In this document: positions 2,394 through 14,391 of the stretch, piece after piece
How positions within the stretch are numbered: the first letter of the stretch is position 1
How the letters are laid out: every line of letters starts with the position of its first letter
Virus genome (UHGV): UHGV-0373725
Length of the DNA: 35,336 nt
Reading direction: 5' to 3' (one strand)
Origin: a virus
Program-made: the position numbers and the translations under genes
Notes under the pieces: model-generated
What the model was told of the DNA's origin: nothing
The model's database searches: none
What the model saw: the letters and a program-made list of their open reading frames with translations, nothing else

Positions 2394-4543
2394 TATGCTT
2401 TCTCCTCGGCTTTATTCAGTTCTTTAATGCGCCCATCTTTGATGGAGATGAGTCGGCGGAGCCGGCCAGACAGATAACGTTCATGCTGCGTGTCGCCGTT
2501 GGCCTGGGCGGCTTTAATGTGAACATCGATCTCACGTGCGATAGGGGAAAACACACCGTTGATTTCGTTCACCGTCACGCCATGCGCCAGGGTATTAGCA
2601 ACGCGGCTTAATTTATCGTCAAACTCCTGGCGGAGCCGTGCTGCATCTTCGGCTGATTCGCTGGCGTTCTTCAGGTCAAACTCGGCCTTGTTCTTCTGGC
2701 GGTACTCCAGATTGTCGTAAAGCCCCATAAAGATATCGCCACTGAATCCGAGGCCGGATAACGCTTTTTTGGTCGCATCTGTCAGTGATTTTTTGGCTGC
2801 TTCGCCGTCGCAGGTGATCCCGTATTTACTACCGTAAATGTAGGGTGTACAGCCGTATGCTGTTTCCTCACCTCGTACTCCGTTCAGGATGTACCAGAGC
2901 CGGACAGTCACAACATGGTGCTGTTCGTTGACGGTATTACCATTCCCATCAAGAACCAGCTCCCACGATGCGTTGTTGTCTTTGCCTTTTACCTGCCGAG
3001 TGATCGGCGCGCCAATATCGAAACGCTCTTCAACAATATCCACGCCCCAGCCGATGCCCTTAGGGCCAAACTCACGTGTGGCAAGCATGGTCATGTAGGT
3101 ACCGTTGATCGAGGTGCCACCGCCGTTCTGTGTGAAAGCCTTAGTAAACCTTTCGTCGGTTTTAAATACGCGTTTCCAGAGGTCTAAATTGTCTTCCCCG
3201 ATAATTGGTTTTCCGACAGCCTGCACAACATCCTCAGCGTTAGGCAGGCTTTCAGCGTGAGCGATTTGTTTTGCTAAACGCTCGGAATCATCAGCCAGTT
3301 TTTCAGCCTTAACGCTTAACTTCTCTTCCGGCTCTGCACCTTCACCAGAGGCATATACGCCATAACCCATATCATTGAGCGTCTCACGCGCCTGTTTGGC
3401 CTGAGTGTCGGTTACAACCGGCTGCTGCGCTTCCACTTTTTCGCCCACGTTTGAGGCGGTATTTTGCGTCGCCTCTGGTTGTTTAACGGATCCTGTCTCG
3501 GTTTCCTCAAAGCGACCGTTGGCCGCCAGCCATGAATCGATATGGCGGCGCAGGCTGTCAGGGAAATGGTAGGTATCTTTCGCCGGTACGTTTTGTACCA
3601 CGCCGAAGATGCTGGCACGGTCGTATTTGAGTATCTGCGGCGTGGTGTGCAGCGATGCTGACCAGCGTTTAAAATCTTCCCGGTCATCGGAAATCATCTT
3701 CTTAGCGTCCAGAAGGTTTCCGGATAGTACCGGCGCATCAGGCGCCAGCGGGAGAAGGGCGGTAGCGATCTCCTGATCCAGCGTTGCATAAGTGTGTTTA
3801 TACCCGCGCTTAGAAATTACCACGGGTGTTTTATCATCGGTGCTGGTGCTGAGAGCGGTATTTTTATATACGCCGGGGGCCAGTTCGTCGCGCTTGCCCG
3901 GATTCTCAAGCCAGCGTTTAACGAACTGAGAGATAGCCGCTTTGCCCGGCGTCTGGTTTTCAAAGTGGGAGAAAATACCCTGAATAAGATTGTTCAGACC
4001 TTCCACATGCATGCTTTGAACCGGGAAGTTATTTTGCAGGGCGCACAGAACATTAAAGTTAAAGCGATCTTCCTCTTCAAATTCCCCATCGTGGTTTTTC
4101 AGATTATCCAGATAATCCACAACCTGAGAATAAAGATGGCCATCAATCGCCGCGGTGCTAAAAAGCAGGACGGCAGCAAAGCGTTCATCAGGGGAAACGG
4201 TCATCAGGTCGATCACTTCATCGTCGGCTGGTAAACCTGCACCACTTCCGGAAGCGCTATCCTGCGCAGTAGAAACCCATTTTTCACCGTCAAAAGTATG
4301 CTGCTGGGCGAATGACTCATCGAACTGGCCAACGGTCGGCAGCGGCTGGCCTTCAACGTGTTCCCACAGTTTCGGTTTGAAATAGTTGTCACCATTGGCC
4401 GGGTATGATTCCCAGAGTTTGCCGGTCATAATGCTTTCGGCCACTTTTTTGTTTGGCGCATCGATGGCGATCGCCAGCTGCACGGCGCCGCAGTCTTTAA
4501 TCGCCGATTTCTTTGGCTCAAATGAGCCGTTGTAGATGGTCAT
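2393..4543 (-). CDS. Large (716 aa) protein with a C-terminal Rad52-like single-strand annealing domain and an uncharacterised ~450-aa N-terminal region
   Basis: Residues ~470-640 show the Rad52/Sak-type pattern (FGPKGIGWG, beta-hairpin VVTVRLWYILNG, AKKSLTDATKKALSGLGFSG compared with human Rad52 ARKEAVTDGLKRALRSFG). Start set at Met12, which sits in the conserved cassette (gaggaaagaccaATGACCATC). Confidence 0.6.
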   Translation of the reverse strand: MTIYNGSFEPKKSAIKDCGAVQLAIAIDAPNKKVAESIMTGKLWESYPANGDNYFKPKLWEHVEGQPLPTVGQFDESFAQQHTFDGEKWVSTAQDSASGSGAGLPADDEVIDLMTVSPDERFAAVLLFSTAAIDGHLYSQVVDYLDNLKNHDGEFEEEDRFNFNVLCALQNNFPVQSMHVEGLNNLIQGIFSHFENQTPGKAAISQFVKRWLENPGKRDELAPGVYKNTALSTSTDDKTPVVISKRGYKHTYATLDQEIATALLPLAPDAPVLSGNLLDAKKMISDDREDFKRWSASLHTTPQILKYDRASIFGVVQNVPAKDTYHFPDSLRRHIDSWLAANGRFEETETGSVKQPEATQNTASNVGEKVEAQQPVVTDTQAKQARETLNDMGYGVYASGEGAEPEEKLSVKAEKLADDSERLAKQIAHAESLPNAEDVVQAVGKPIIGEDNLDLWKRVFKTDERFTKAFTQNGGGTSINGTYMTMLATREFGPKGIGWGVDIVEERFDIGAPITRQVKGKDNNASWELVLDGNGNTVNEQHHVVTVRLWYILNGVRGEETAYGCTPYIYGSKYGITCDGEAAKKSLTDATKKALSGLGFSGDIFMGLYDNLEYRQKNKAEFDLKNASESAEDAARLRQEFDDKLSRVANTLAHGVTVNEINGVFSPIAREIDVHIKAAQANGDTQHERYLSGRLRRLISIKDGRIKELNKAEEKA

Positions 4544-4555
4544 TGGTCTTTCCTC
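4541..4555 (-). promoter_or_regulatory. Conserved translation-initiation cassette GAGGAAAGACCAATG at the annealing-protein gene, preceded by a GGCGC-gtgacct-GCGCC hairpin
   Basis: Read directly on the minus strand. Confidence 0.6.
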
Positions 4556-4587
4556 TTGGTTACTGGCGCAGGTCACGCGCCGGTTAA

Positions 4588-4911
4588 TTAAAACGGTACG
4601 TCGCTTTCTTCAATTGGAGAGTGATCGATGCACAGCAGCTGCTGAATCTGGTCTTCAATAACACCCAGCTCCTTCTTTGCTTCGGCAGAGATTTTCTCTT
4701 TCTTCGCACGAAGGGCATTAACCTGCATACCAATAATGTCGATTGGCTCTAAAGCTGGAATGGCAACCTCTACCGTTTTGGTAGTAACGAGGACATACAG
4801 ATCAGGGTATTGCTGTGACATGTCACAGGTGAATGAGTGATAAGACGTTGGTAGATATGGTTTGGTTGTGGCCATAACGTAAATAGTTACGGGGATGGTA
4901 AGCGCTTCCAT
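4588..4911 (-). CDS. Hypothetical early protein (107 aa) with an acidic C-terminal tail ending ...IEESDVPF
   Basis: Good Shine-Dalgarno (AAGGAGtcgctATG); first gene of the leftward early operon. Confidence 0.6.
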   Translation of the reverse strand: MEALTIPVTIYVMATTKPYLPTSYHSFTCDMSQQYPDLYVLVTTKTVEVAIPALEPIDIIGMQVNALRAKKEKISAEAKKELGVIEDQIQQLLCIDHSPIEESDVPF

Positions 4912-4973
4912 AGCGACTCCTTGATGATATATACTCAGAGCCGATCAGCGGCTCTGTCGTTGGTCTTTCCTCG

Positions 4974-4995
4974 CTACAGGGTTGGTCCCCTGTAG
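4974..4995. promoter_or_regulatory. Hairpin CTACAGG-gttggtcc-CCTGTAG next to a degenerate copy of the cassette (GAGGAAAGACCAAcg, no start codon)
   Basis: 7-bp perfect stem read directly; adjacent motif at 4960-4972. Confidence 0.5.
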
Positions 4996-5029
4996 CATTC
5001 TGGGCGGTTTGGTCACTGTCCCGGGTAAA

Positions 5030-5104
5030 TTAGCCCACTTCGGTGGGCTTTTTTACGCCTGAAGGTTGCCGGTCTTTCCCGGCTGTCAGGGTGGTCAGCC
5101 CCAT
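5030..5104 (-). CDS. Possible 24-codon mini-ORF (MGLTTLTAGKDRQPSGVKKPTEVG) behind a perfect copy of the cassette
   Basis: gaggaaagaccaATG at 5102-5116 on the minus strand followed by an open frame to TAA; too short for the ORF track; could be a leader peptide or fortuitous. Confidence 0.2.
   Translation of the reverse strand: MGLTTLTAGKDRQPSGVKKPTEVG
5032..5055 (+). terminator. Strong intrinsic terminator on the plus strand (7-bp stem, UUCG tetraloop, T-run) with no plus-strand gene upstream
   Basis: AGCCCAC-ttcg-GTGGGCT followed by TTTTTT. Confidence 0.55.
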
Positions 5105-5262
5105 TGGTCTTTCCTCGTTACTGCGTGAATGCTTTAAAAAAATGCCCGGGGCGCCCGGGCCAAGACTACACACAGCAATTCGTATTCGTTGCGGTCTTTC
5201 CCGCATGTCATCGTACTGTCGGCGACCCGAAGAATTCGCGCCCGTCTTTCCGGACTGTCAGA
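5068..5262 (-). repeat. Three ~20-nt direct repeats, each a short hairpin with a GAAAGA loop (minus-strand sense) and a different but complementary stem
   Basis: Plus strand: GCCGG-TCTTTC-CCGGC (5068-5083), TGCGG-TCTTTC-CCGCA (5189-5204), CCG-TCTTTC-CGG (5244-5255); each followed by a TGTCA(G) box. Confidence 0.65.
5136..5160 (-). terminator. Intrinsic terminator for leftward transcription
   Basis: GCCCGGG-gcg-CCCGGGC stem-loop preceded on the plus strand by AAAAAAA, which is a U-run after the hairpin on the minus strand. Confidence 0.55.
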
Positions 5263-5374
5263 ACTGTTTCTGAACAACTGCCGCGTGGTTAGTGCGTCTT
5301 TGATGTGGTGAAGCATAACCAAAGGTATTTTTATTGGCAATGTTTTTTACTAACAAAAGTTAATATTAGAGGTG

Positions 5375-5420
5375 TAAAAAAAGGCAATGCATTGAAAACA
5401 TTGCCTTTAATTTATTTTTT
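5375..5420 (-). terminator. Terminator immediately downstream of the repressor gene (hairpin flanked by A-run and T-run, possibly bidirectional)
   Basis: AAGGCAATG-cattgaaaa-CATTGCCTT with flanking A7 and T-rich runs. Confidence 0.55.
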
Positions 5421-5825
5421 TGGAGTGTTTTTTTTCTTTTTTACCAAAAGTAACTCATCAAACAATCGCTGGAATCCGTCAACTTTATCTTTCAACTCAT
5501 TGATATGTCTATCTTTTTCTGATTCAGGTAGAGAATCAAAAAGATCAAGCAGTAGCTTTTGGCGATCATCTAACCGAGGTAAAAGCTCTTCTGCCTTCAA
5601 CGGTTCATCGCTATCGGTACCGTTAAGTAACCATGTCGGAGAGCAACGAAGAGCCTCAGCGAGAGAAAACAGATTTTGCCCTTTTGGGGTGTTAATACCT
5701 GCTTCCCACTTGTAAACGCTGACGCCAGATATGCCAACGGCATCGGCGAGCTGCTGTTGTGTCAAACCAAGCTCTTTCCGTCTCGATGTAATGCGATCGT
5801 TAAAGGTCAATTTTTTCATATCCAT
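5412..5825 (-). CDS. Phage repressor, XRE-family helix-turn-helix (CI / RacR-like); no LexA-type S24 peptidase domain
   Basis: 137 aa; HTH LTQQQLADAVGISGVSVYKWEAG; divergent from a Cro-like gene; no Shine-Dalgarno, TATATT immediately upstream of the ATG (possible leaderless mRNA). Confidence 0.8.
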   Translation of the reverse strand: MDMKKLTFNDRITSRRKELGLTQQQLADAVGISGVSVYKWEAGINTPKGQNLFSLAEALRCSPTWLLNGTDSDEPLKAEELLPRLDDRQKLLLDLFDSLPESEKDRHINELKDKVDGFQRLFDELLLVKKKKNTPKK

Positions 5826-5893
5826 AATATAAGTTAACTTGACATAACTTTCGTTAGTATTTATGTTCCTAACTGACGTTAGGAGAGGAAACT
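5826..5893. promoter_or_regulatory. Divergent promoter/operator region of the immunity switch
   Basis: Plus-strand -35 TTGACA (5839-5844) with a -10-like TATGTT 17 bp downstream; palindrome CCTAAC-tgac-GTTAGG (5868-5883) and a further CGTTAG half-site (5852-5857). Confidence 0.5.
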
Positions 5894-6091
5894 ATGAAGA
5901 CCGAAACTGTTATCAGATTTTTTGGAACTAAAACCGCTGTTGCGCGTGCATTAGGTATCTCTCAAGTCGCTGTAACCCGCTGGGGGACTGTTGTTCCTGA
6001 AAAGCGAGCTGCGCGACTTGAGCATGTAACCGCGGGCGCCTTGAAGTACGACCCTACTTTTTACGAAGAGCAAAACACGTCTAAAGCATAA
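5894..6091 (+). CDS. Cro-like / YdaS-like HTH regulator
   Basis: 65 aa, HTH TKTAVARALGISQVAVTRWG; first gene of the rightward operon; Shine-Dalgarno AGGAGAGG. Confidence 0.7.
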   Translation: MKTETVIRFFGTKTAVARALGISQVAVTRWGTVVPEKRAARLEHVTAGALKYDPTFYEEQNTSKA

Positions 6092-6153
6092 CTACAGGCG
6101 TTATCGAAATCTGATTACGCTTAATCAATTTTCAGCGACAGGAGACGCTCGAA

Positions 6154-6600
6154 GTGGAATACCTCGAAGAACTTAAACGAGAGATCTTTAACTGGGCAGC
6201 GGAAAGCGGGCAGGAGCTGGTTGCTATCGAGATAAGCCGCATGTGGTTTCGTCTTGGTGGTAATACCGGTTCGCTGAAGCTGCACCAGATCGAAGATGCA
6301 GATGGAAACGCCGACTGGCGGGCAATCAACAACAACCGCCAACAAATTTTTCGTTGGTTGCGAGGCGAGACCAAAGCCGCGAGAGCCAAAACTCTGGCGC
6401 TGGTCAAAGCGATGGAAGCGGCGCTGCCGGCAGAACGTTACGCGCGCTTGGGTATGTCCACCCAGTATTTAATTTGTGTGGCCATTCGTGAGTTTGCCGC
6501 GGCGATTATCGCGTTATTACTCGACGCCAGAGACGGGCCGCAGCAAGTCGCCAGAGCATTGCAAGCTATGCGAGAAACACAGCGCCTGACCAGCGTTTAA
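6154..6600 (+). CDS. CII-like / YdaT-family regulator (tentative)
   Basis: 148 aa, GTG start with CAGGAG Shine-Dalgarno; position after the Cro-like gene and motif ...FRWLRGETK... recalled from YdaT-like proteins. Confidence 0.5.
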   Translation: MEYLEELKREIFNWAAESGQELVAIEISRMWFRLGGNTGSLKLHQIEDADGNADWRAINNNRQQIFRWLRGETKAARAKTLALVKAMEAALPAERYARLGMSTQYLICVAIREFAAAIIALLLDARDGPQQVARALQAMRETQRLTSV

Positions 6601-6608
6601 CCTGTACC

Positions 6609-6623
6609 GAGGAAAGACCAATG
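6609..6623 (+). promoter_or_regulatory. Conserved translation-initiation cassette GAGGAAAGACCAATG, preceded by a GCGCctgaccaGCG hairpin and TTAACC
   Basis: Read directly; identical 15-mer at 9249 and 17807. Confidence 0.6.
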
Positions 6624-6842
6624 AGAACACAAGACCGCATCACCTGGCGGAACGGGTTTCGCCGGAACGGGGTACAAGTCCCGATGGAAGATATCGAATC
6701 GATTTTCGAGGAACGTCGCGCTACTGCGCTGACAATCTGGGAACGCTACGAACTGCGCAAGGCAGACCTGCAGGAAGCGGGACTTACCCAGAAAGAATAC
6801 GAAATCGCCTGCCGTCAGCTGGCTGACTCGCTGGGGATCTGA
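6621..6842 (+). CDS. Hypothetical protein (73 aa)
   Basis: ORF starting in the conserved cassette; no recognisable motif. Confidence 0.5.
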   Translation: MRTQDRITWRNGFRRNGVQVPMEDIESIFEERRATALTIWERYELRKADLQEAGLTQKEYEIACRQLADSLGI

Positions 6843-6844
6843 GT

Positions 6845-7837
6845 ATGAATATTTTGCCATTACTCGACAGGCCGATCGCCTTCCAGCGCAGTTTTATTCG
6901 TCTGGATATTGGTGTGACGGCTGCGCTGTTTCTATCACAAATGACCTACTGGACTAACCGGTCCGACGATGACGGATGGGTGTATAAAACTCAGGAAGAA
7001 TGGGAAGAAGAAACCGGCCTTTCCCGCTATGAGCAGGAGGGGGCGCGTAAGAAACTCCGCTCAATTGGTGTACTACTGGAAAAAAGAAAAGGCGTTCCTG
7101 CGCGACTTTTCTACAAAGTAGATAATAACGTTTTATATCAGGTGCTTGCAGCTGCAAACAAGAATGCGGAAAAACCACATACTGGAATGCGGAAAACCAC
7201 CAAACAAGTCAGGGGAAAACCAGCAAACTTTCTTACAGAGAATACTACAGAGAATATATATACCCCTAACCCCTTAGAGGAGGAAGGCGTTGAGTTAATT
7301 CTTTCTGATGCACAAAAAGCGCTGGAATTTTACAACGAGCAAACCGGTACCCGCTGCCGTGACCTGAAACCGTTTGTGATGATGCTGACGCCGACCACCA
7401 CCCGGGAAGGGTACACACTGGACGAATTGCAGTTAGTTATCCGCTGGGTGCTGGCCACATGGCGCCGCCGTGGCGATAGCCTGCCGAAGCCAGCGAACAT
7501 CTGCCGGGTAAACCGCTTTGATGGTTATCTCGCTGACGCTGAAGCATGGGCGGTGACCGAAACCGATATTGATCCGGAAGCCGTTATGAACGGCTACAAC
7601 GAAATTTTTGCTGATGTTCTGCCCGCTGCTGAATTGGACACAGACCGCCGCCGGATGATCACCCGTCTGGCCGCCCATATGAAAAACAAAACCACGGGCG
7701 CATTTCTGGGCTATTTCGAAAAATTCCGCGCTGACGCCTCCGATTTTTACTTTGGTGAAAATGGCGGATGGCGCGCCAGCTTTGACTACCTGATGAAGCC
7801 TGAAACATTGCGTAAAACTCGTGAGGGATCGCTATGA
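6845..7837 (+). CDS. Phage replisome organiser / replication initiation protein (O-like, tentative)
   Basis: 330 aa; position immediately upstream of the helicase gene with ATGA overlap; N-terminal winged-helix-like region. Confidence 0.55.
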   Translation: MNILPLLDRPIAFQRSFIRLDIGVTAALFLSQMTYWTNRSDDDGWVYKTQEEWEEETGLSRYEQEGARKKLRSIGVLLEKRKGVPARLFYKVDNNVLYQVLAAANKNAEKPHTGMRKTTKQVRGKPANFLTENTTENIYTPNPLEEEGVELILSDAQKALEFYNEQTGTRCRDLKPFVMMLTPTTTREGYTLDELQLVIRWVLATWRRRGDSLPKPANICRVNRFDGYLADAEAWAVTETDIDPEAVMNGYNEIFADVLPAAELDTDRRRMITRLAAHMKNKTTGAFLGYFEKFRADASDFYFGENGGWRASFDYLMKPETLRKTREGSL

Positions 7838-10922: not shown

Positions 10923-11153
10923 ATGAAAAACACTATTCAGGATTTAATGAATCACCAGTTCGCCATGCTGGAAACCGTCACCGATCCCAATATCAAAGGC
11001 GACCTGCTTCAGGAAGAGTTATCGAGGGCTAAAGCGGTAGTGGAAATCGTCGGGGTGATGGTCGGTACTTATCGAGTTGCGCTCGACGCCCAGAAGGCTA
11101 TTTATGACGGTACCGCAGGCAATGTACCTAAGATTATGGGGATCGAAAAATGA
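10923..11153 (+). CDS. Hypothetical protein (76 aa)
   Basis: ORF with GGAGG Shine-Dalgarno. Confidence 0.5.
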   Translation: MKNTIQDLMNHQFAMLETVTDPNIKGDLLQEELSRAKAVVEIVGVMVGTYRVALDAQKAIYDGTAGNVPKIMGIEK

Positions 11154-11767
11154 TAGAGAAATACACTCCAGCCCAGGAGTTGTTTATCAAGCAGCATATT
11201 AAAAGCTCCACTGCGCGGGAATTAACTGAAATGTTTAACGCTAAATTTGGTACAAATAAGAGCGTGGGCGCTATTCGTATCTGGTGCAAATCTCATGGGT
11301 TAGGAAAGCAGTTTTTAATTGAGCCGCGCTATTCCGATGAGCAGCTGACTTTCATTTATGCCAATAGGAATCTAACGAATGCTGAACTTACAGAAAGGTT
11401 CAACAGGAGATTCGGTACCGATAAAAAACCTGACAATATCAAGGATGTAAAGATAGCTCGCGGATGGACACGCGAACCTAAAGGCCGGAAACGCATTCTT
11501 CCACAGTACATCACTGTTAATAAAGAGAAAATTAGACTCGATGTATACGTATATGAATGCGTACATGGAAAATTACCGTCTGGTTATTCGGTTATCCATC
11601 TGGATAATGATTTGAATAACAACAATATCAATAATCTACGCGCGGCACCTAAAGAAATACGCCGCCTGTTCTCTGGGGCGGGCTACTCAAAAATGCCGCA
11701 GGTTCTTGCTCCGGCGCTGTATGCACAAGTTATGCTCCGCCATGCAATTAAACGATTATCCAGCTAA
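11150..11767 (+). CDS. HNH homing-type endonuclease with two N-terminal repeated modules
   Basis: HNH-like motif (YECVHGKLP...HLDNDLNNNNINNL); duplicated ~45-aa N-terminal modules; markedly AT-rich compared with flanking genes. Confidence 0.6.
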   Translation: MIEKYTPAQELFIKQHIKSSTARELTEMFNAKFGTNKSVGAIRIWCKSHGLGKQFLIEPRYSDEQLTFIYANRNLTNAELTERFNRRFGTDKKPDNIKDVKIARGWTREPKGRKRILPQYITVNKEKIRLDVYVYECVHGKLPSGYSVIHLDNDLNNNNINNLRAAPKEIRRLFSGAGYSKMPQVLAPALYAQVMLRHAIKRLSS

Positions 11768-12118: not shown

Positions 12119-12143
12119 CGAACAACCATACCAGTTAAAACAG

Positions 12144-12170
12144 AACCGTCAGAAATGGCGGTTTTCTTTT
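12144..12170 (+). terminator. Weak terminator-like hairpin with T-rich tail
   Basis: AACCG-tcagaaatgg-CGGTT followed by TTCTTTT. Confidence 0.35.
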
Positions 12171-12300
12171 GAATTCAATCGGATATTTTGAGATTTATTG
12201 TTGATTTTTAACGATTCGTGCTCTTAAAAATTTGCGCTCACTGTCAGTTGGTAGTATATATACTGTAATTTTATACAGTATTGTTGTTGAGGGAGAGGTA

Positions 12301-12492
12301 GTGGTTGATAAGAAAGACGCAGGAGACCTTCTCCCCGACGATGGTGATGTACTGATAACGTGTGAAAATGGGAAGATTAAGAAGACCAGAATTGTCCATT
12401 CCGATGAGCACGTAGCGACACTTAACGCGTTGTTTGAATTAGCTAAATTGACGGGTTATACCATTATCAAACCAGACGGCAATATGCTATAA
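12301..12492 (+). CDS. Small hypothetical protein in an AT-rich island (probable GTG start)
   Basis: GAGGGAGAGG Shine-Dalgarno then GTG; promoter-like TTGCGC-N18-TATATA upstream; low GC. Confidence 0.35.
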   Translation: MVDKKDAGDLLPDDGDVLITCENGKIKKTRIVHSDEHVATLNALFELAKLTGYTIIKPDGNML

Positions 12493-12560: not shown

Positions 12561-13157
12561 ATGGCGCAGTATTCTTTTGTAAAAGCACCCGGCGGTGTAT
12601 TAATTCCGGCAACGCCTGACGCCCGCGAATTCTTAGAAAAAAAAGTCCGCATGGGCGGTATTCTGTATGCGGATTTTAAACAGGCAAGGAACTCGGCATT
12701 TCACCGTAAATTTTTTGCCCTCCTGAATCTGGGATTTGATTACTGGCAACCTTCCGGCGGTGCAATATCGCCAGCCGATAAAAAACTGGTTCGGGGTTAC
12801 GTGCAGCTGGTGGCCCACTATGCCGGGCATGGCGACACATTGCAGGAACTGGCGGATCAGTATCTGCGCGATGAGGCAGAAAAACGCGCCGGCAATATCA
12901 GCGCGGTTAAATCGTTTGAAGCTTTCCGTTCCTGGGTAACTATCGAGGCCGGTTTTTATACCGAATACCAGATGCCTGATGGCACCACCCGCAAGGAACC
13001 CAAATCCATATCGTTCGCAAAAATGGACGATGTAGAATTTTCCCAGCTGTACAAATCCGTATTAGACGTCCTCTGGAATTTTATTTTATTCCGCACCTTC
13101 CCTAATCAGCAGGCAGCAGAAAACGCAGCCTCTCAGCTTTTCAGTTATGCGGCCTGA
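12561..13157 (+). CDS. Hypothetical phage protein (198 aa), possibly NinB/Orf-like or DUF1367-like (tentative)
   Basis: Shine-Dalgarno AAGGGG; motif FHRKFFALLNLG loosely resembles the NinB QNRKLWACLG region; family assignment not verified. Confidence 0.5.
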   Translation: MAQYSFVKAPGGVLIPATPDAREFLEKKVRMGGILYADFKQARNSAFHRKFFALLNLGFDYWQPSGGAISPADKKLVRGYVQLVAHYAGHGDTLQELADQYLRDEAEKRAGNISAVKSFEAFRSWVTIEAGFYTEYQMPDGTTRKEPKSISFAKMDDVEFSQLYKSVLDVLWNFILFRTFPNQQAAENAASQLFSYAA

Positions 13158-13167
13158 GGCGGACACT

Positions 13168-13644
13168 ATGAAATTCAATATTCGCTCTCATATCGTCGAG
13201 ATGGATGAGGCCGACGCCTTGATCTTTGTGGGTTACCCCATCCACATCGGCTCGAATGGTTATGCAAAAGTCACCGGCTGGCATTTTGGCAAGGAAAGAT
13301 ACCTTCATCGCGTCATCATGAATGCGGGGCCTCATGATGTTGTAGATCACATTGATGGTAATAAGCTCAACTGCACCCGCTCAAATCTGAGGATCTGCAC
13401 ACAGGCCGACAATACCAAAAATGTGGGCTTGAGGAGTGACAATAGCTCAGGAATTCCGGGAATTTACTGGGTATCCACTCGCCTAAAATGGGCGGCGCAA
13501 ATTTCAGTTGATGGCAGGACCGTTAGTTTAGGCCGCTTTGATGAAATTGCCGATGCTATCAATGCCCGCCGGAAAGCAGAAGATTTGTATTACGGGGAGT
13601 TTGCAGCCAGCAAGGGGGTGCTTTGTGAAAAAGCGCGCCAGTAA
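13168..13644 (+). CDS. HNH endonuclease with AP2-type DNA-binding domain
   Basis: HNH motif (HRVIMN...HIDGNKLNCTRSNLRICTQADNTKN) followed by an AP2-like segment (IPGIYWV...KWAAQISVDGRTVSLGRFDEIADAINARRKAE). Confidence 0.75.
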   Translation: MKFNIRSHIVEMDEADALIFVGYPIHIGSNGYAKVTGWHFGKERYLHRVIMNAGPHDVVDHIDGNKLNCTRSNLRICTQADNTKNVGLRSDNSSGIPGIYWVSTRLKWAAQISVDGRTVSLGRFDEIADAINARRKAEDLYYGEFAASKGVLCEKARQ

Positions 13645-13939
13645 ATCAGATAAGCAATATTTCCAAGATCTCGTTGAGATAGGTTGTATTGTCTGCAAAG
13701 TACACTTCGGCGTGTACTCCGCCCCCGAAATCCATCACATCCGAACCGGTCAGGGCATAGCCCAGCGCGCCGACCACAAAGAAACTCTCCCGCTTTGCCC
13801 GCCACACCACAGAACCGGCGGACACGGCGTAGCTATCCACGCAGGGCAAAAAACATGGGAAGAAAACTACGGCACGGAGACTGAATTGCTCGAACAGGTC
13901 ACTAACGAGATAAAGGAATTACGTCTATGCAGAATTTAA
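13625..13939 (+). CDS. Putative Cys/His-rich zinc-binding phage nuclease (YbcO/Ref-like, tentative)
   Basis: GTG start overlapping the upstream stop; CIVCK...EIHHIRTG...LPLCPPHHR...HGVAIH pattern. Confidence 0.4.
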   Translation: MKKRASKSDKQYFQDLVEIGCIVCKVHFGVYSAPEIHHIRTGQGIAQRADHKETLPLCPPHHRTGGHGVAIHAGQKTWEENYGTETELLEQVTNEIKELRLCRI

Positions 13940-14094: not shown

Positions 14095-14391
14095 ATGCCG
14101 CTGGTCGCCACCTTCCGTACAGACTGGTTCAGAGTCATTACCGACCTGACCCGAAAAAATCTCACCACTCAGCAAATCGCCGATGAACTTGGCGTTTCAA
14201 AATCCGCCGTCCTCGGCTGGAAATCTGGATCAGAGCCTCGCCATGGTCACGGTGAAGCGCTGATTGCTCTCTGGTGTCTGGCTACCAGCTCAGACCGTAA
14301 AAAACTCCCCACAGTGCTTTACCGCCAGTGGTGGACGTTCCGCCGCCCTGTTTTTGGTCGGGAAACTGACCAGAAGGGCAACACACAATGA
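14095..14391 (+). CDS. HTH-containing protein, candidate late-gene regulator (function unknown)
   Basis: 98 aa; HTH-like LTTQQIADELGVSKSAVLGW; sits at the junction between the accessory region and the virion module. Confidence 0.5.
   Translation: MPLVATFRTDWFRVITDLTRKNLTTQQIADELGVSKSAVLGWKSGSEPRHGHGEALIALWCLATSSDRKKLPTVLYRQWWTFRRPVFGRETDQKGNTQ

Follow-up and report, generated by a model that had tools for sequence, protein, structure and literature searches.

The region between positions 5375 and 6600 of the virus genome UHGV-0373725, analyzed here over a stretch of 35,336 nucleotides (nt) that is called the window, is probably the switch by which a temperate enterobacterial phage chooses between lysis and lysogeny. 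The switch appears to follow the DicA/DicC plan of the Escherichia coli Qin prophage, complemented with a YdaT-type analogue of CII, and to be induced by an antirepressor; the probability of this reading is put at about 0.72. Three genes form its core, and their open reading frames (ORFs) lie where an original prediction made from the sequence alone had placed them (5412–5825 on the minus strand, 5894–6091 and 6154–6600 on the plus strand). They encode a repressor, a Cro-like protein, and a YdaT-family protein, respectively, and a candidate antirepressor is encoded to the right of them.

The repressor is a homolog of Qin DicA, with which it shares 44% identity over the full length without gaps. 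The NCBIfam model NF007257 “transcriptional repressor DicA” is matched with 152.7 bits compared to a cut-off of 101, and residues 1 to 131 align with model positions 1 to 133 of 135. HTH_3 (helix-turn-helix) is the sole Pfam match (residues 15–66, 59 bits), and the N-terminal domain matches that of P22 c2 (PDB 1ADR, 5e-13; Foldseek template modeling score 0.96, 41% identity). The repressor GtgR of Gifsy-1/-2 is 33% identical, and the identity includes the motif LL.LF..LPE.EK. Homologs (n = 93) are spread across the Enterobacterales and mostly measure 129 to 137 amino acids (aa). They are characterized by an invariant C-terminal signature, LLxLFxxLPESE...FxxLFxELL, in which L93, F94, L97, P98, E99, S100, E101, F116, L119, E122, L123, and L124 do not vary among 39 to 40 sequences. 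No such relationship is seen with RacR, for which the best BLASTP hit has an E-value of 0.5 over 15 residues and no PHROG family is held in common. Judged by its sequence, the repressor is a member of the DicA family that is unrelated to RacR, and the Rac-type module of the original prediction does not hold in this respect.

The AlphaFold2 model of the repressor, which was built from an alignment without E. coli DicA, consists of a five-helix HTH domain, a linker, and two C-terminal helices (residues 85–95 and 99–130) that account for the last 50 residues. The repressor most likely acts as a dimer that is held together via these conserved helices. When the C-terminal domain was searched with Foldseek, no independent confident match was obtained; the search returned just a whole-chain resemblance of high root-mean-square deviation to SinR–SinI and to complexes of an arbitrium-phage repressor with AimX. 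The architecture is of direct importance for induction. Classical RecA-stimulated autocleavage has a general precedent in lambda and P22, to which the P22-c2-like N-terminal domain may be added, while specific support for it was not found. As an explanation for this repressor it is extremely improbable, as Peptidase_S24 of Pfam is not matched even at E ≤ 0.1, the protein counts 135 aa compared to 216 to 237 aa in cleavable repressors, its C-terminal part is modeled as two helices, and the Gifsy homologs stay uncleaved in vivo (PMC3121763). Self-cleaving repressors of the LexA/CI type are characterized by a C-terminal S24 domain, a Ser/Lys dyad, and an Ala-Gly cleavage site; a repressor of 135 aa that lacks an S24 domain cannot cleave itself. 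Here, the original prediction is borne out: it had proposed a protein of HTH and short C-terminal region without a LexA-like peptidase domain, had considered RecA-dependent cleavage unlikely, and had named the detection of such a domain by a profile search as a possible refutation. The tail behind HTH_3 turns out to be conserved and helical (approximately 50 aa), and only the length of 137 aa has to be changed to the 135 aa that follow from the conserved start.

The Cro-like gene (5894–6091, plus strand, 65 aa) is preceded by the Shine-Dalgarno sequence AGGAGAGG. Its product is of the DicC/P22_Cro type, matching P22_Cro (PF14549) with 75.8 bits at a cut-off of 30.2, belonging to phrog_409, and being 42% identical to DicC; on the DicC model of NCBIfam it scores 64, which is below the cut-off of 130. 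An assignment to YdaS was rejected, since YdaS_toxin (PF15943) reaches 28.4 bits and stays under its cut-off of 30. The adjacent gene (6154–6600, plus strand, 148 aa) encodes a true member of the YdaT family. It matches PF06254 with 76.1 bits (cut-off of 21), phrog_163 “CII-like transcriptional activator” (4e-39), and the structures 3C4R and 8BT1 in the PDB (approximately 1e-6), and it is 42% identical to Rac YdaT over 96 aa. Of the YdaS/YdaT pair to which the divergent partners had been likened, the YdaT half is thus retained and the YdaS half is replaced by a P22_Cro/DicC-type protein.

The role of the YdaT-like protein is illustrated by two putative binding sites. The first box, CTGATT-ACGCTT-AATCAA (CTGATTACGCTTAATCAA), is located at 6111 to 6128, within the 62 bp that separate cro from ydaT and 26 nt before the latter, as a candidate site of a PRE-type control region; it is a single match, with 0.14 expected across the window. 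The second, CTGATT-AAGCCT-AATCAG at 1646 to 1663, is perfectly symmetric and lies upstream of orf74-xis-int in a PI-like position. The pattern CTGATT-N6-AATCA is found at these two sites of the window compared to 0.01 expected (the palindromic site scores on both strands, which yields three rows for two sites). Among 33 related loci, 18 have a box where ydaT begins, and in many the repressor has a second one approximately 4.5 kb to its left. The YdaT of CP-933P recognizes TTGATT-N6-AATCAA, a site located between ydaS and ydaT, and is the activator of a PRE-type promoter (PMC9986795, PMC8630535). In Rac, YdaT recognizes ATGATT-N6-AATCAA and switches on racR through a reverse promoter (PMC11879457). 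A consensus scan detected no leftward promoter near the box in the window, as would be expected for activator-dependent promoters. By their sequence and position, the boxes favor PRE-like and PI-like targets, and thus a CII-like role of YdaT, over a role as a toxin.

This bears on the claim that the two divergent genes form a pair that is toxic when derepressed. In a Rac-type module, a RacR-like repressor would restrain a toxic YdaS/YdaT pair, and derepression would kill or arrest the host. Such a module would accommodate the YdaT family membership of the third gene, the toxicity of Rac YdaT upon expression (PMC11879457), and the list of small non-cleavable repressors by Lemire et al., in which both DicA and RacR appear. 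It is nevertheless very unlikely, because the repressor belongs with DicA and lacks similarity to RacR, the Cro partner is of the DicC/P22_Cro type and falls under the YdaS cut-off, and the boxes occupy PRE-like and PI-like positions. Moreover, YdaS and YdaT are not a toxin–antitoxin pair but analogues of Cro and CII (PMC8630535, PMC9986795, PMC11879457), and the YdaT of CP-933P is non-toxic (PMC8630535). For the repressor and Cro, the Rac-type reading is refuted at the sequence level, and the proposal of a toxic pair is superseded by the published Cro/CII assignment and by a YdaT box at the expected place.

The repressor transcript is predicted from its promoter geometry to be leaderless and to begin with the A of the AUG, like that of lambda cI. 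The minus strand reads AAGTTAACTTATATT-ATG-GAT-ATG-AAA around the start (in a longer read, ...GTCAAGTTAACTTATATT-ATG-GAT-ATG-AAA-AAA), so that two ATGs follow each other in frame at 5825 and 5819. A PRM-like −10 hexamer, TATATT (5826–5831, minus strand), directly abuts the first ATG, and neither AGGA nor GGAG nor GAGG is found within the 18 nt upstream of the start, both of which agree with what had originally been read from the sequence. Related loci (n = 32) were fetched from reference genomes, and the upstream DNA of the 27 with an identifiable start was compared together with the window. All 28 repressor-family loci carry a −10-like hexamer 6 to 9 nt on the 5′ side of the family-consensus ATG (6 nt in 9 loci, 7 in 2, 8 in 6, and 9 in 11), and AGGA, GGAG, or GAGG occurs in none of them within 18 nt. 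The arrangement is kept across subgroups with differing operators and diverged intergenic sequences. In the subgroup of the window it takes the form TATATT-N6-ATG, the ATG being the second one. Lambda PRM displays the geometry TAGATT-TAACGT-ATG.

The second ATG is also singled out by the proteins. NCBI annotates homologs of 135 aa (e.g., P0010), and the alignment of the protein family begins at the second methionine. On the basis of these sequences, the conserved repressor start is the second ATG, and the DicA-family gene spans 5412 to 5819 on the minus strand (135 aa, stop codon at 5412–5414). The comparison to lambda cI made in the original prediction can accordingly be kept for the missing Shine-Dalgarno sequence and the hexamer next to the start, with the start itself moved to the second ATG, 6 nt from the hexamer.

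Differential RNA-seq in E. coli K-12 identified five leaderless mRNAs that include dicA, racR, and ymfK, with leaders of 3, 0, and 0 nt (PMC4681348), and the mapped dicA start site lies 3 nt upstream of the ATG (Table S3 therein). In the dicA sequence, TAGCAT-TAGCTAACT-ATG, the mapped start is the seventh base after the aligned hexamer. It fits a geometry of 7 nt and supports the aligned hexamer as the −10 element. If the same rule is applied to the window, the start is predicted to fall 7 nt downstream of the hexamer on the A of the second ATG, which gives a leader of zero length. PaaR2 of CP-933P is a further proven case of a leaderless repressor mRNA (PMC8630535). A leaderless repressor mRNA is an already known property of the DicA family, and the conserved geometry makes a leaderless or near-leaderless message look like a trait of that family rather than a peculiarity of E. 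coli K-12. A zero-length leader could possibly couple the supply of repressor to stress-dependent translation of leaderless mRNAs.

A repressor mRNA with a leader would result if translation began at the first ATG (137 aa) or if transcription began further upstream, for instance at a YdaT-activated PRE, with TATATT being incidental. Several close relatives indeed harbor the in-frame upstream ATG (ATGnnnATG), an upstream promoter gives rise to an N-terminally extended form of Gifsy-3 GfhR upon induction (PMC3121763), and a PRE-type transcript is expected while lysogeny is established (PMC8630535, PMC11879457). A PRE transcript, however, would supplement the leaderless PRM transcript in lysogens and not replace PRM. 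The spacing between the −10 hexamer and the ATG is seen in all 28 loci of diverged subgroups and a Shine-Dalgarno sequence in none, the mapped dicA start validates the aligned −10, and the upstream ATG is missing in one relative (L008). Established promoter geometry does not permit a start site at the base right after a −10 hexamer, so that the first ATG, which TATATT abuts, would lie outside a transcript from this hexamer. A leadered transcript is consequently regarded as improbable, and the zero-length leader is the preferred reading.

The divergent PR-like promoter of the Cro-like gene (5839–5867, plus strand) was found in a promoter scan as TTGACA-17-TATGTT with 10 of 12 consensus matches, and the complement of its −35, GTCAA, recurs at the same place in related loci. 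Two candidate operators of the form YTAAC-N4-GTTAR lie 25 bp apart within 5844 to 5882 and were identified as a direct repeat and by pattern search. O2 (ATAACTTTCGTTAG, 5844–5857) is placed between the −35 and the −10 of PR, and O1 (CTAACTGACGTTAG, 5869–5882) covers the PR start site. Pairs of TAAC-N4-GTTA are found at corresponding positions in relatives. Measured from the predicted repressor start, O1 is centered at approximately −56.5. The same position is taken in E. coli by Oc, the site from which DicA acts as a repressor of dicC and an activator of dicA (PMC3441716). A palindrome, AAGTTAACTT, at 5831 to 5840 between the PRM −10 and the PR −35 may be an OR3- or Cro-type site; relatives carry AAGTTAACTT or AAATTAATTT at this position. 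A third operator equivalent to OR3 was not found with the O1/O2 pattern, and the half-site of the palindrome is a different one.

On its other side, the repressor gene is followed directly after the stop codon by an intrinsic terminator (5380–5408, minus strand) that is composed of a hairpin and a U-run (−14.8 kcal/mol, z = −4.6) and isolates the gene from the leftward early operon. The PL-like promoter of this operon (5312–5363, minus strand) was found in the promoter scan as TTGCCA-17-TATGCT running from 5340 to 5312, and the pattern search placed an operator-like site, CTAACAAAAGTTAA, at 5350 to 5363 directly upstream of its −35. Its position corresponds to that of dicBp downstream of dicA in Qin (PMC10448788).

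The most likely route of induction is SOS-dependent antirepression through a small ORF approximately 6.5 kb to the right of the switch, which, from its sequence and surroundings, is rated as probable. The candidate Rem-family antirepressor (12301–12492, plus strand) counts 63 aa and has a GTG start. A near-consensus, AT-rich LexA (SOS) box, TACTGTAATTTTATACAGTA, lies at 12261 to 12280, 21 nt upstream of the GTG, and a terminator-like hairpin (12142–12165, plus strand, −16.5 kcal/mol, z = −3.0) is found just upstream of this putatively LexA-controlled unit. The ORF matches phrog_340 (4.7e-23), the same family as E. coli Rem (4.4e-21), and both align from profile position 12. NCBI annotates 63-aa homologs of it; in deposited phages, tblastn finds it only in BUCT708/709. 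A profile was built from the ORF, nine homologs, and Rem. It yielded 23 matches, consisting of 21 related loci (on the cro-side strand), the window, and K-12 Rem. A CTGT-N8-ACAG box stands directly upstream of 12 of the 23 Rem-like ORFs, namely the window and 11 related loci. In the window this pattern is found twice, with 0.23 expected. The other occurrence is a perfect 16-bp palindrome, CTGTGACATGTCACAG, at 4813 to 4828. Despite its formal agreement with the LexA pattern, it is probably not a LexA site, as its center is GC-rich and it lies within a coding region, namely the first gene of the leftward operon, whose 107-aa product belongs to phrog_2479 (unknown function).

Rem is a proven antirepressor of DicA that derepresses the DicA-controlled dicBp 165-fold (PMC10448788). 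In Gifsy prophages, the repressors (136 aa) remain intact under mitomycin C and are inactivated by small antirepressors from LexA-controlled promoters, the antirepressor units being situated right of the replication genes and behind a terminator (PMC3121763). In addition, the recorded source of Cronobacter phage phiES15, whose “DicA”-annotated repressor is 59.5% identical to that of the window, is “UV-induced Cronobacter sakazakii ES15.”

Several observations weigh against the proposed switch and its induction. The 63-aa ORF is linked to Rem only at the profile level, with BLASTP giving a weak match (26 residues, E = 0.019), and the annotation of phrog_340 reads “unknown function”; Pfam and NCBIfam contain no match to the ORF. 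A consensus scan found no sigma-70 promoter for it, the AT-rich tract TATATATA abutting the LexA box. E. coli K-12 Rem lacks a LexA box, and LexA control is thus not universal in the Rem family. In Qin, derepression also occurs without Rem, be it spontaneously or through temperature or urea (PMC10448788). At the switch itself, the confidence of the repressor model is moderate (predicted local distance difference test score of 70), and the −35 of PRM is poor (ACGAAA) and overlaid by O2. The poor −35 would fit a dependence on an activator; probable positive autoregulation of the repressor is drawn from the analogy with DicA at Oc.

Some of these points would also suit a switch that is flipped without the 63-aa ORF, through instability of the repressor, temperature, proteolysis, or a stochastic takeover by Cro. 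The ORF could then have another SOS-related role or target the repressors of other prophages. The derepression of dicBp in the absence of Rem, the better operator binding of DicA at 25 °C compared to 37 °C (PMC3441716), the missing functional annotation of phrog_340, and the ability of antirepressors to hit non-cognate repressors (PMC3121763) are in line with such a bypass. It remains unlikely in view of the 21 related loci in which Rem-like ORFs accompany DicA-family repressors on the same strand side, the LexA box at 12 of the 23 Rem-like ORFs, and the Gifsy-like order, right of the replication genes, of terminator, LexA box, and small ORF. Induction by the antirepressor is therefore preferred to the bypass. 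As for Rem itself, a published statement calls its inducing signal unknown, which fits the boxless K-12 gene, and the distribution of the box suggests that K-12 lost an ancestral SOS box before Rem.

Taken together, the following course of events is proposed. In lysogeny, the 135-aa repressor would bind to the paired TAAC-N4-GTTA operators through its P22-c2-like HTH domain. The operators overlap the rightward promoter of cro, ydaT, and the replication genes and adjoin the leftward promoter of the recombination genes, xis, and int, so that the bound repressor would shut both promoters and probably stimulate its own weak promoter, as DicA does at Oc. Upon DNA damage and inactivation of the host LexA, the small unit 6.5 kb to the right would be derepressed, and the 63-aa Rem-family antirepressor would be made. 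The antirepressor would then bind the repressor and strip it from the DNA, whereupon the DicC-like Cro would lock the lytic state. After infection, YdaT would be expected to bind the boxes before ydaT and before the xis/int region and to favor the synthesis of repressor and integrase.

The surroundings of the switch are those of a near-complete temperate phage or prophage. To the left of the immunity region, the window encodes an integrase, an excisionase, a Gam-like protein, and a 727-aa exonuclease; to the right, an O-like initiator, a DnaB-type helicase, a methyltransferase, HNH endonucleases, and NinB are followed by a podovirus-type structural module. Two HNH-endonuclease genes (11150–11767 and 13147–13644) flank the segment with the LexA box, the antirepressor, and NinB, and an ORF resembling a RecA-dependent nuclease (13538–13939) overlaps the second of them. 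A 98-aa HTH protein (14095–14391; phrog_16553, “transcriptional repressor”) precedes the structural genes at the spot expected for a regulator of late genes, and no Q-type antiterminator was seen in the window. Close relatives among deposited phages are limited to “Stenotrophomonas” vB_SmeS_BUCT708 and BUCT709 (OM816834/OM816835), which are approximately 90% identical across half of the immunity region (4900–6900). Nearly all named homologs of the repressor and of the 63-aa ORF belong to Enterobacterales (Pluralibacter, Raoultella, Klebsiella, Enterobacter), which makes the recorded Stenotrophomonas host of BUCT708/709 look doubtful.

The leader of the leftward early operon (approximately 400 nt, 4912–5305, minus strand) contains five copies of GGAAAGAC(C), at approximately 5251, 5201, 5114, 5079, and 4970; the motif can also be given as GGAAAGACC. 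Three copies are located in short hairpins (e.g., CCGG-GAAAGA-CCGG), and one follows the hairpin ACAGGG-GACCAA-CCCTGT, the stem of which appears to covary (CGTAGGG/CCCTACG in locus L001, CACGAGGG/CCCCGTG in L011). Loci L001, L005, L006, L011, L012, L014, and L015 have conserved this cluster downstream of their repressor gene. The leader additionally harbors two terminator-like hairpins (5160–5144 on the minus strand and 5032–5049 on the plus strand), and Rfam and tRNA scans of the window gave no match. Several real genes, namely the exonuclease (4543–4560), xis (1430–1446), the 73-aa ORF after ydaT (6605–6623), and a 24-aa small ORF inside the leader (5104–5122), are preceded by a stereotyped ribosome-binding region, GAGGAAAGACC(A)ATG, that is formed by the same 9-mer. 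From the position of this region, the true start of the exonuclease is the ATG near 4543 and not the GTG at 4576. The BUCT708 homolog of the 73-aa ORF is annotated “adenylate cyclase,” a label that nothing in the analysis of the window supports. The recurrence of the 9-mer before several genes suggests a shared signal for translational control. The idea that DicA-type immunity regions possess in this leader a conserved regulatory RNA that is so far undescribed is doubtful, though conceivable. The array could be a decoy or titration site, with decoy ribosome-binding sites, for a translational regulator; it could also be an antitermination element that allows read-through of both leader terminators, or an antisense small RNA.

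For annotation, the repressor is to be assigned to the DicA family with 135 aa, the “YdaT toxin” becomes a CII-like regulator, and the 63-aa ORF becomes a probable antirepressor. The prophage, apparently of a host from the Klebsiella/Enterobacter group, is predicted to be SOS-inducible, so that DNA-damaging antibiotics would induce it despite its non-cleaving repressor. The antirepressor might also cross-induce co-resident prophages of the DicA type, as in Salmonella. The current understanding of phage switches is unchanged by these assignments.

Among the closest known systems, DicA/DicC/Rem of Qin shares several parts with the switch. The repressors (44% identity) have the C-terminal LPESE...F..LF.ELL motif in common, the Cro partner is 42% identical to DicC, and a Rem-family small ORF is located on the cro side. 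In both, the leftward early promoter follows the repressor gene in the same direction, a Shine-Dalgarno sequence is absent, and a −10 lies close to the ATG. The spacing between the two differs, with 6 nt in the window compared to 9 nt in dicA, which results in a predicted leader of zero length instead of the mapped 3 nt. The candidate operators of the window are CTAAC-N4-GTTAG, while Oc of Qin is TTGTTAG-N6-CTAACAA. Further differences are the LexA box before the antirepressor, which is absent in K-12, and the intact YdaT gene after cro, where K-12 has ydfX/ydfW. The window also lacks dicB and dicF and is a complete-looking phage, not a remnant.

Gifsy-1, -2, and -3 (repressors GfoR, GfhR, and GtgR; antirepressors GfoA, GfhA, and GftA) belong to the DicA class and likewise use small, non-cleavable repressors of approximately 136 aa, with GtgR 33% identical to the repressor of the window including the C-terminal motif. 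Their small antirepressor genes are LexA-controlled and lie right of the replication genes and behind a terminator (PMC3121763), as is predicted for the window. The small ORF after dinI in LT2 Gifsy-1 belongs to phrog_4847 and has no similarity to the 63-aa ORF, and the antirepressor profile produces on this locus only a marginal match elsewhere (E = 0.001, 13 bits). The Gifsy-2-type antirepressor thus represents a different family. In contrast to Gifsy, the window has no dinI homolog between the LexA box and the antirepressor, and it encodes YdaT in place of a lambda/D3-type CII.

With RacR/YdaS/YdaT of Rac and PaaR2/YdaS/YdaT of CP-933P, the switch shares the YdaT-family CII analogue, an NTGATT-N6-AATCAA box by ydaT, repressors without a peptidase domain, and leaderless repressor mRNAs (0 nt for both racR and paaR2, predicted in the window). 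The differences are a repressor that is unrelated to RacR, a Cro partner that is not of the YdaS type, and the position of the box, which lies 26 nt upstream of ydaT in the window, overlaps the start codon in Rac, and is found at the end of ydaS in CP-933P.

Lambda and P22 have in common with the window the divergent PR and PRM promoters and the paired operators approximately 24 to 25 bp apart. The −10, 6 nt, AUG arrangement, which in the window predicts a leaderless repressor mRNA, is shared with lambda, and the N-terminal domain (approximately 41% identity) with P22 c2. Unlike in lambda and P22, the repressor lacks both a C-terminal S24 domain and RecA-dependent cleavage, and the predicted start sites of PR and PRM are much closer, with approximately 55 bp between them compared to 82 bp in lambda. 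The function of lambda CII would be provided by an unrelated fold, the POU-like tetramer of YdaT, a family in which the long helix alpha-6 serves for tetramerization. Coliphage 186 (CI/Tum) and N15 (CB/AntC) are induced by SOS via a LexA-repressed antirepressor and not by cleavage (cited in PMC3121763), the route that is proposed for the window, with the difference being that their repressor and antirepressor families are unrelated to those of the window and that Tum counts 146 aa with a DinI-like half. For each element of the switch, a counterpart has been described in Qin, Gifsy, Rac, or CP-933P.

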